Assembly (NCBI RefSeq): GCF_003334405.1
Contig: NZ_QOWM01000003.1
Strand: one strand, 5' to 3'
Length of the DNA stretch: 64,000 nt
DNA from: Escherichia coli
GTDB lineage: Bacteria; Pseudomonadota; Gammaproteobacteria; Enterobacterales; Enterobacteriaceae
Part shown: one piece after another, positions 33,735-35,042 of the stretch
How positions within the stretch are numbered: the first letter of the stretch is position 1
Layout: each line of letters starts with the position of its first letter
Position numbers and translations under genes: made by a program
Notes under the pieces: model-generated
What the model saw: the letters and a program-made list of their open reading frames with translations, nothing else
What the model was told of the DNA's origin: nothing
Databases searched by the model: none

Positions 33735-35042
33735 TTATTTGCTACTGTCCGGGCCGCGTTCACCGGTTGCTACCGGATTTTTTGGATCGCTGCTCCATTC
33801 GTACCAGCCGCCGTCATACACGGAAACATTCTTCCAACCCATGGCGCGTGCGTACATAAAGGTTTCGGACGCGCGCCAGCCGGTGCCGCAGTAGAATGAA
33901 ACTTGCTGCTCTGGTTTGATATTCCACGCTTTCCACATAGCGGTAATATCATCGGCGCTGCGCATGGTGCCATCCGGGTTATGAAAATCTTCCATATGCG
34001 TCGAGTCGCTACCAGCGTGTCCCCAACGTGCGCCGGCTATTTCACCTTTTGGTTTAATATAGCTGTAACCGCTGGTCGTACCGATAAATTCTGGCCACGA
34101 ACGAATGCTCACCAGCGATGCATCCTGGCGATGCAGCAGTCCACGGGCCTGTTCCATATCGAGCATCAACTGCGGTTGTGCCGGGATCTTCACGCCGAAA
34201 TCCGGTTCCGCTTTCACTTTCGGTGGCGTTCCGCGCTCAACAGGCAGTCCCGCGTCGGACCAGGTTTGCCAGCCGCCATCCAGCAGGCGCACATCTTTCA
34301 CGCCAGCATAAAGCATAATCTGCGCCACACGCGCTGCAGCGTATACGTCACGCCCATACAGAATGACCGTGGTGTCATGGCGAATGCCGTGTTTTGCCAG
34401 CATCGCTTTTAGTTGTTCATCAGAAACTTTGTTCCACAGCGGTTCACTTTCCACTTCGTTGGTATCGATGTAGTCAGCGCCGGGAATATGGCTGATAAGG
34501 TAAAGCTTAGGAGCGCCCCAGGCCGCTTCAATGACTTTCCAGTCACCGGCAGGTTTCGCCGTAACCTCTTTACCTTGTTGCAGGTCGTGCAGCCATTGCG
34601 GATAAACCAGCTGCTCAAAATGCGGCAGTTTTTGCAGACGGGAAGGTTCGCTTAGCGCGTCACTCAGGATGGAGATATGCGTTAAACCTGCTTTTTGCAG
34701 TCGCGTTTTGACGGCGTCGACATCTTTGTCATTACCGTACAGCGCCACCGGAGCATCGGTTTTCAGGTTATGTTGCTTGATCCACGCGTTGAGCTGTTCG
34801 GTGCTCATTTTGTCAAGCCAGCTGGCAGAGAGGTTTAAGGCGGCAGGTTCATGACCAGAAGGGCCATTTAAGGTTTGTGGCCAGCCGTTATAAAACGCGC
34901 TGGGGCGAGTATCTATCGCTTTGCCATTTTGTTGTTGAAGCTGGTCAAGTGTAAGAGGCTTCGCCAGTTCAGCGGCCCACGAAGAAGCGCAAGCCAGCCC
35001 TAAAGCCATTGCCAGCGCGGTCATTTGAGAAACACGTTTCAT
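33735..35042 (-). CDS. ynjE: periplasmic multi-domain thiosulfate sulfurtransferase (rhodanese) YnjE
   Basis: ORF trimmed to ATG 35040-35042 (435 aa); signal peptide MKRVSQMTALAMALGLACASSWA; rhodanese active-site loop YCGTGWRAS. Confidence 0.88.
   Translation of the reverse strand: MKRVSQMTALAMALGLACASSWAAELAKPLTLDQLQQQNGKAIDTRPSAFYNGWPQTLNGPSGHEPAALNLSASWLDKMSTEQLNAWIKQHNLKTDAPVALYGNDKDVDAVKTRLQKAGLTHISILSDALSEPSRLQKLPHFEQLVYPQWLHDLQQGKEVTAKPAGDWKVIEAAWGAPKLYLISHIPGADYIDTNEVESEPLWNKVSDEQLKAMLAKHGIRHDTTVILYGRDVYAAARVAQIMLYAGVKDVRLLDGGWQTWSDAGLPVERGTPPKVKAEPDFGVKIPAQPQLMLDMEQARGLLHRQDASLVSIRSWPEFIGTTSGYSYIKPKGEIAGARWGHAGSDSTHMEDFHNPDGTMRSADDITAMWKAWNIKPEQQVSFYCGTGWRASETFMYARAMGWKNVSVYDGGWYEWSSDPKNPVATGERGPDSSK

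Follow-up and report, generated by a model that had tools for sequence, protein, structure and literature searches.

YnjE of Escherichia coli, a three-domain rhodanese-family protein with a predicted signal peptide and FNR-dependent expression

YnjE of Escherichia coli embodies a contrast, as an apparently exported enzyme to which a part in making the molybdenum cofactor in the cytoplasm has been assigned, and which is nearly inactive with the classical rhodanese donors, while its nearest characterised relative makes the C-S bond in ergothioneine. The question raised by its locus is where YnjE acts and to what it passes sulfur. Knowing both would fill in a minor missing piece of sulfur trafficking in E. 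coli, and would help to find out what the orphan FNR-induced ydjXYZ-ynjABCD cluster does. The gene itself is already known, being present in databases and literature, annotated, crystallised as its product and repeatedly studied. Here it was analysed within a window, i.e. the whole stretch of 64,000 nucleotides of E. coli DNA to which all positions below refer.

Identity, domains and signal peptide of YnjE

The gene and the elements encoded in it are as follows.

33735..35042, minus strand: ynjE coding sequence (open reading frame list; RefSeq WP_001301291.1; match to PDB 3IPO/2WLR)
35049..35052, minus strand: Shine-Dalgarno-like GGGA, 6 nt upstream of the ATG, its GG conserved in the alignment
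34974..35042, minus strand: predicted signal peptide, residues 1-23, MKRVSQMTALAMALGLACASSWA (hydropathy and -3/-1 rule; cleavage predicted after A23)
34656..34943, minus strand: rhodanese domain 1, residues 34-129 (PF00581, E 1.1e-3; no Cys)
34254..34514, minus strand: rhodanese domain 2, residues 177-263 (PF00581, E 3.2e-11; no Cys)
33789..34154, minus strand: rhodanese domain 3, catalytic, residues 297-418 (PF00581, E 2.8e-12)
33873..33890, minus strand: active-site loop CGTGWR, residues 385-390 (direct translation)

The open reading frame is intact, with 435 codons plus TAA, and coincides exactly with the RefSeq coding sequence WP_001301291.1 at 33735-35042, whose product name, 'thiosulfate sulfurtransferase YnjE', claims more than is known. 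The crystallised proteins of PDB entries 3IPO/3IPP and 2WLR/2WLX are YnjE and match over the full length (E 4.8e-290) with one substitution, the sole difference from the crystallised K-12 sequence being P66 in the window versus L66. This near-identity over the full length, together with the chromosomal place between ynjD and ynjF, identifies the gene as ynjE (b1757), which encodes a three-domain rhodanese-family sulfurtransferase and belongs to the E. coli core: over the 6.5 kb surrounding ynjE, several E. coli chromosomes show 100% identity to the window, and the region was found in 5424 of 5426 complete genomes of the species. A sequence-only reading of the window had already named the product YnjE, an identification with which both the RefSeq name and PDB 3IPO/2WLR agree, although it had omitted the strand (minus). 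As to the start codon, a mechanical list of open reading frames extended ynjE upstream to an ATG at 35057 (440 aa, five codons longer). This ATG is not conserved outside the genus, whereas ATGAAACGTGTTTCTCAA at 35042 is kept in other genera and is preceded by a GG-rich ribosome-binding site that is conserved in the alignment.

Three matches to the Pfam rhodanese family (PF00581) place YnjE in this superfamily and, along with the crystal structures, bear out the three tandem rhodanese folds expected from the sequence-only reading, while translation puts the CGTGWR loop, which had likewise been assigned to the C-terminal domain, at residues 385-390. The protein contains only two cysteines, C18 within the signal peptide and C385, which opens the six-residue loop C385-GTGW-R390 of domain 3. 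As neither domain 1 nor domain 2 has a cysteine, both should be catalytically inactive, and since C385 is the only cysteine outside the signal peptide, a persulfide is possible on the third domain alone. The CGTGWR loop was invariant in 12 diverse homologues and reads CG[TS]GWR across most family members; Tyr326 is also invariant among diverse homologues.

The N-terminus, MKRVSQMTALAMALGLACASSWA followed by AE, has the features of a Sec-type signal sequence, with K2 and R3 in the n-region, a hydrophobic core at about residues 7-17 and a small-x-small site at residues 21-24 (S-W-A, then A after the predicted cut); neither a twin arginine nor a lipobox is present in it. The signal peptide claimed in the sequence-only reading thus agrees with these features, from which cleavage itself is predicted. 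Crystallisation was done with constructs whose first residues are 20 and 23 and which lack the signal peptide, and YnjE is described as periplasmic in PMC10215317. A direct localisation or cleavage experiment was not found in the literature searched. Most likely, to judge from its N-terminal sequence, YnjE is exported to the periplasm and cleaved after Ala23.

Relatives and published enzymology

When YnjE was compared with a library of 1.84 billion representative proteins, it matched 341 clusters at E < 1e-30; these comprise both exported and signal-less forms, in which CG[TS]GWR is nearly invariant. Among solved structures, the nearest relatives are 6KTV, 6KU1 and 6H98 (E ∼1e-88), the next family following at 3e-26. 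These three entries represent EanB, the anaerobic ergothioneine synthase of Chlorobium limicola (the name EanB is given to 6KU1 in bioRxiv 10.1101/2024.04.10.588849), which is 38% identical to YnjE over 418 residues. In the alignment of residues 33-427 both proteins have the three-domain span, the FYCGTGWR loop and the conserved tyrosine of the SGY motif, but EanB lacks a signal peptide and has a 15-residue insert in domain 2 that is missing from YnjE. EanB partners with a histidine methyltransferase, whereas none is encoded near ynjE. Measured against EanB, YnjE shows the three domains, CGTGWR and SGY, but no co-encoded EanA/EgtD-type histidine N-methyltransferase, and its signal peptide speaks against a cytoplasmic location. 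E. coli is not known to make ergothioneine.

The inactive plus active tandem pair of SseA and of mammalian MPST/TST aligns with domains 2 and 3 of YnjE (1URH, E 6e-12; 1RHD, E 1e-17; NF008557, 64 bits), YnjE being unlike these enzymes in its additional N-terminal domain and its signal peptide. The loop motif is CRKGVT in TST and CG[ST]GVT in MST, as compared with CGTGWR in YnjE. None of the NCBIfam equivalog models reached its cut-off for YnjE: the score was 63.8 bits with the SseA equivalog NF008557 (cut-off 250) and 39.2 bits with ExtH, the rhodanese-like protein of a selenite/tellurite reduction operon (NF040901; cut-off 200). A working analogy is offered by Sud of Wolinella succinogenes, a periplasmic polysulfide-sulfur transferase that forms a single-domain dimer and serves polysulfide reductase; although no counterpart of this reductase adjoins ynjE, Sud is likewise an exported protein of rhodanese type that is produced under anaerobic conditions, and it serves as a periplasmic carrier of sulfane sulfur.

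Within E. coli itself, ynjE is one of nine genes with rhodanese domains (PMC10215317). Among their products, PspE is also exported and also has a single catalytic cysteine, but consists of one domain versus three in YnjE and accounts for most of the cellular thiosulfate sulfurtransferase activity (PMC10215317). After purification in a form lacking the signal peptide, YnjE had no apparent thiosulfate:GSH sulfurtransferase activity; the enzyme is described as poor with thiosulfate or 3-mercaptopyruvate, with the comment that 'its physiological substrate is unclear' (PMC10215317).

Gene neighbourhood and promoter of ynjE

On the minus strand the genes are arranged in the order xthA, ydjX, ydjY, ydjZ, ynjA, ynjB, ynjC, ynjD and, after a gap of 66 bp, ynjE. 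The neighbours and the candidate control elements are listed below.

33106..33726, plus strand: ynjF, CDP-alcohol phosphatidyltransferase family (RefSeq, NCBIfam), convergent with ynjE
35109..35762, minus strand: ynjD, ABC transporter ATP-binding subunit (RefSeq; NCBIfam ABC ATPase matches)
35762..37297, minus strand: ynjC, ABC transporter permease (RefSeq, NCBIfam), its stop overlapping the ynjD start
37270..38436, minus strand: ynjB, putative periplasmic substrate-binding protein (NCBIfam NF008633, 560 bits)
38446..38994, minus strand: ynjA, AhpD/carboxymuconolactone-decarboxylase family (RefSeq, NCBIfam)
38994..41108, minus strand: ydjX-ydjY-ydjZ, first genes of ydjXYZ-ynjABCD (RefSeq; operon according to PMC3688515)
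41218..41231, no strand assigned: near-consensus FNR box TTGATTTTTCTCAA upstream of ydjX in the xthA-ydjX spacer, one mismatch to TTGAT-N4-ATCAA
35105..35116, no strand assigned: conserved palindrome TGCG-N4-CGCA, overlapping the ynjD stop
35076..35081, minus strand: -10-like hexamer CAGAAT, conserved in 18 intergenic regions

From the ynjD stop codon (35109-35111) to the ynjE ATG there are 66 bp on the same strand, and ynjD is the last transporter gene, so that ynjE does lie directly downstream of an ABC importer operon as the sequence-only reading had it. On the other side, the stop codons of the convergent ynjF and ynjE are 8 bp apart. The products of ydjX, ydjY and ydjZ are two membrane proteins of the TVP38/DedA type and a lipoprotein. 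For YnjB no solved relative was found, and the homologue matches listed were close enterobacterial relatives only. An Rfam search over 33000-41500 gave no match.

Conservation of this arrangement was examined in one genome per species: a scan for relatives yielded 80 loci, and in these, with 10-kb flanks, the counterparts of the E. coli neighbours were located. In every Enterobacteriaceae locus with the transporter (47/47) the adjacency ynjB-ynjC-ynjD-ynjE is kept. The upstream part of the operon is variable, ydjY being present only in Escherichia and one Citrobacter locus, and ynjA being found either in the operon or beside ynjF, as a copy ∼50-59% identical to E. coli YnjA. Hafnia and Edwardsiella retain ydjZ, ynjE, ynjF and a ynjA-like gene with no ynjBCD within 10 kb, and Plesiomonas, too, has ynjF linked to ynjE; the linkage of ynjF and the ynjA-like gene to ynjE is thus wider than that of the transporter. 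Farther away, in Aeromonas, Craterilacuibacter, Photobacterium, Alkaliphilus and a Bacillota genome, the YnjE homologues are 42-56% identical and their neighbours are genus-specific and mostly of the housekeeping kind (glutaminase, TrmB, MscS, a LysR regulator, a histidine kinase). In two Photobacterium loci, the gene immediately upstream of the ynjE homologue is mobB. Three metagenomic homologues (P0121, P0124 and P0133) are located on contigs of 2-5 kb with no informative neighbours.

A signal peptide is encoded by the orthologues of Enterobacteriaceae, Hafnia, Edwardsiella, Aeromonas, Craterilacuibacter and Photobacterium, and the last five of these have no ynjBCD within 10 kb; the homologues of Firmicutes bear a lipoprotein signal. 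Kosakonia, Phytobacter and Mangrovibacter have a 398-aa homologue without signal peptide, and ynjBCD is missing there too; xthA and nudG flank this homologue at the Kosakonia and Phytobacter loci, from which ynjF and every gene from ydjX to ynjD are missing. As nearly all distant homologues carry a signal, export would be the ancestral and widespread state, which argues against a purely cytoplasmic function of YnjE.

Regulation by FNR has been established for both transcription units. Myers et al. (PMC3688515) reported ynjE as an FNR-activated unit of its own, where FNR gave a ChIP-seq peak, its site was placed at -41.5, and both sigma-70 occupancy and expression were higher without oxygen; ydjXYZ-ynjABCD was reported as a separate FNR-activated unit with a site at -60.5. 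An independent-component study placed ydjXYZ-ynjABCD, ynjE, yedEF and yjiLM together in one anaerobic iModulon (PMC7888660). In the ynjD-ynjE spacer, no canonical FNR box with up to two mismatches was detected; the one good half-site, CTCAA at 35092-35096, was rejected, as it is not conserved even in a divergent E. coli. What is conserved, in an alignment of 18 intergenic regions from different genera, is the palindrome cTGCG-N4-CGCAa, which precedes the ATG by 73-78 nt in 43 of the 47 Enterobacteriaceae loci, and CAGAAT, which starts 29.5 bp downstream of the centre of the palindrome and thus at the spacing of a class II activator. Given this geometry, the published FNR site at -41.5 would correspond to the palindrome at 35105-35116, which is probably the site of an FNR-type activator of the ynjE promoter, and transcription would start near 35069. 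When the K-12 coordinates were carried over by means of a sigma-54 motif reported inside ynjE (PMC4591121), the centre of the FNR peak fell ∼18 bp from the palindrome, provided that both papers refer to one genome version. The palindrome matches the FNR consensus TTGAT-N4-ATCAA poorly (about 5 of 10 half-site positions), and might therefore be used by another regulator. As TGCG-N4-CGCA occurs twice in the window, which is the chance level, its significance derives only from conservation across species.

A consensus scan returned a single promoter match, TTCAGA-16-TACAAT at 35083..35056, which was rejected because TACAAT is not conserved in other genera and 'TTCAGA' overlaps the conserved CAGAAT. 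Likewise, the palindrome was discarded as a common box of the uncharacterised iModulon, being absent upstream of yedE and yjiM in K-12. No hairpin of terminator grade was found in the ynjD-ynjE spacer, where the RNA folded about as well as shuffled sequence (z = -1.5). It appears that ynjE has its own conserved promoter in the 66-bp spacer, to which read-through from ynjD may add.

Candidate functions of YnjE

Taken together, the mechanism that we favour, with a probability of roughly 0.85, is that of an exported and anaerobically induced persulfide carrier using Cys385. The ynjE gene would be transcribed anaerobically from its own class II FNR-type promoter in the spacer, which overlaps the ynjD stop, possibly with a contribution of read-through from the FNR-activated ydjXYZ-ynjABCD operon. 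The precursor with its Sec-type signal peptide would be exported to the periplasm and cut after Ala23, both steps being predicted. There, Cys385 in the CGTGWR loop of the third domain would take up sulfane sulfur as a persulfide and hand it to a nucleophilic acceptor, with the two cysteine-less N-terminal domains serving as a scaffold. The outcome would presumably be an extracytoplasmic handling of sulfane sulfur or polysulfide during anaerobic growth.

What such a carrier serves physiologically can be read in several ways. The sequence-only reading had suggested that YnjE provides or accepts persulfide sulfur for a transported substrate in the periplasm. A pairing of this kind with YnjBCD, in which the sulfur would be given to a YnjB-bound substrate or accepted from there, we regard as possible, though on balance unlikely. 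Such a pairing would agree with the short same-strand distance to ynjD without a convincing terminator, with the FNR activation (PMC3688515) and the iModulon (PMC7888660) that ynjE shares with ydjXYZ-ynjABCD, with the order ynjBCD-ynjE in the 47 Enterobacteriaceae loci, and with the fact that Kosakonia, Phytobacter and Mangrovibacter lack the signal peptide and ynjBCD together. That joint loss, however, probably represents a single evolutionary event, and ynjE possesses its own conserved promoter and is its own FNR-dependent unit (PMC3688515). Moreover, exported orthologues do without ynjBCD (within 10 kb) in the five genera from Hafnia to Photobacterium, amid neighbours that are genus-specific and housekeeping-like, and no solved relative of YnjB was found. 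As the link to ynjBCD is limited to one family, the inferred connection with the transporter is weakened but not refuted. The only published physiological role, cited in several papers, is that of a cytoplasmic YnjE relaying sulfur from IscS to MoeB/MoaD for the molybdopterin dithiolene. FNR induction would suit the anaerobic demand for molybdoenzymes, and mobB is found beside the homologue in two Photobacterium loci. We nevertheless think this role quite unlikely for the native protein: being cytoplasmic, it fits export badly, in that the signal peptide is kept across Gammaproteobacteria, a lipoprotein signal is present in Firmicutes, and IscS, MoeB and MoaD are cytoplasmic. Furthermore, a ynjE deletion had normal 6-N-hydroxylaminopurine (HAP) and chlorate phenotypes in published work, and the biochemical work on YnjE used the signal-less protein (PMC10215317).

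A chemistry like that of EanB, in which YnjE would transfer polysulfide sulfur onto a carbon of a small heterocycle and would be no generic thiosulfate/cyanide rhodanese, we consider improbable, slightly more so than the relay to MoaD. In its favour, no other solved family comes nearly as close to YnjE as EanB (E 1e-88 versus 3e-26), which is alike in span, FYCGTGWR loop and SGY tyrosine at 38% identity over 418 residues, and the poor activity of YnjE with thiosulfate and 3-mercaptopyruvate is consistent with it. The sulfurisation of heterocycles by EanB-like enzymes was indeed suggested by the Seebeck group in a paper that cites the YnjE structure (PMC9516567). Against it, neither a histidine methyltransferase nor another gene of a small-molecule pathway lies beside ynjE, and EanB differs in lacking a signal peptide and in the 15-residue insert of domain 2. 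Very improbable, finally, is that YnjE and its neighbours form an anaerobic selenium-handling module. [quoted passage not shown] All these selenium-related matches are far below the curated cut-offs (39 bits versus 200 for ExtH), no experimental link of YnjE and its neighbours to selenium was found, and the conserved palindrome of ynjE is absent upstream of yedE and yjiM. Returning to the exported persulfide carrier, a more specific version of it can be offered tentatively, as less likely than the pairing with YnjBCD yet more likely than the relay to MoaD: YnjE might be an anaerobically induced, EanB-like periplasmic enzyme that delivers polysulfide or persulfide sulfur to a small-molecule or protein acceptor, working with ydjXYZ-ynjABCD, ynjF and ynjA, and the molybdenum cofactor role might be a by-product of work on a signal-less version kept in the cytoplasm.

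The ynjD–ynjE spacer and the upstream operon

The ynjB, ynjC and ynjD genes of the ydjXYZ-ynjABCD operon overlap, the ynjC stop codon with the start of ynjD (window 35762) and ynjB with ynjC by 28 nt (37270-37297), which suggests that translation of the transporter genes is coupled, whereas ynjE is preceded by a gap of 66 bp. A palindrome and a −10-like hexamer occupy a fixed place upstream of ynjE and are kept in 43 of the 47 Enterobacteriaceae loci compared. The palindrome agrees poorly with the FNR consensus, yet FNR binding upstream of ynjE has been reported by ChIP-seq (PMC3688515). 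A near-consensus FNR box in the xthA–ydjX spacer fits the reported activation of ydjXYZ-ynjABCD by FNR.

Features upstream of ynjE (window coordinates)
41218-41231, near-consensus FNR box TTGATTTTTCTCAA, xthA–ydjX spacer
38446-38994, ynjA, AhpD-like gene
35105-35116, palindrome cTGCG-N4-CGCAa, overlapping the ynjD stop codon
35076-35081, −10-like hexamer CAGAAT, starting 29.5 bp downstream of the palindrome centre

The ynjE coding region and its convergent end

Within ynjE itself, GTGGCGCAGATTATGCT (34312-34328, minus strand) corresponds to an intragenic sigma-54 binding site identified by ChIP-seq (PMC4591121). Codon 66 (34845-34847) encodes proline in this strain and leucine in the crystallised K-12 YnjE; as RefSeq protein WP_001301291.1 has the same sequence as the YnjE of this strain, P66 is a natural variant. 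The stop codons of ynjE and ynjF lie on opposite strands only 8 bp apart (33726-33735) and therefore the 3' ends of the two transcripts must overlap; PMC12288877 lists ynjE and ynjF as a candidate excludon.

Neighbours and export of ynjE homologues

Linkage of ynjE to ynjF and a ynjA-like gene is more widespread than its linkage to the transporter. The ynjA gene lies within the operon in Escherichia, Klebsiella, Raoultella and some Citrobacter; a copy adjacent to ynjF, ∼50–59% identical to E. coli YnjA, is found in Enterobacter, Kluyvera, Hafnia, Edwardsiella and others. A 398-aa ynjE homologue (49–55% identity) devoid of a signal peptide is present in Kosakonia, Phytobacter and Mangrovibacter; in Kosakonia and Phytobacter it is flanked by xthA and nudG, and ynjF as well as the genes from ydjX to ynjD are absent. 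Export and the neighbouring genes thus appear to have been lost jointly in these lineages. Two Photobacterium loci have mobB, a molybdopterin-guanine dinucleotide gene, immediately upstream of the ynjE homologue and in the same orientation, which hints slightly at a molybdenum-cofactor link of YnjE; this arrangement was not found upstream of the homologue in a third Photobacterium locus, L080.

Genes at loci with ynjE relatives (each locus's own coordinates)
L005 to L052, ynjA or ynjA-like genes, e.g. L005 11945-12463
L075 9968-11164, L079 10031-11227 and L077 9989-11182, 398-aa homologues without signal peptide
L078 8039-8620 and L082 9277-9858, Photobacterium mobB
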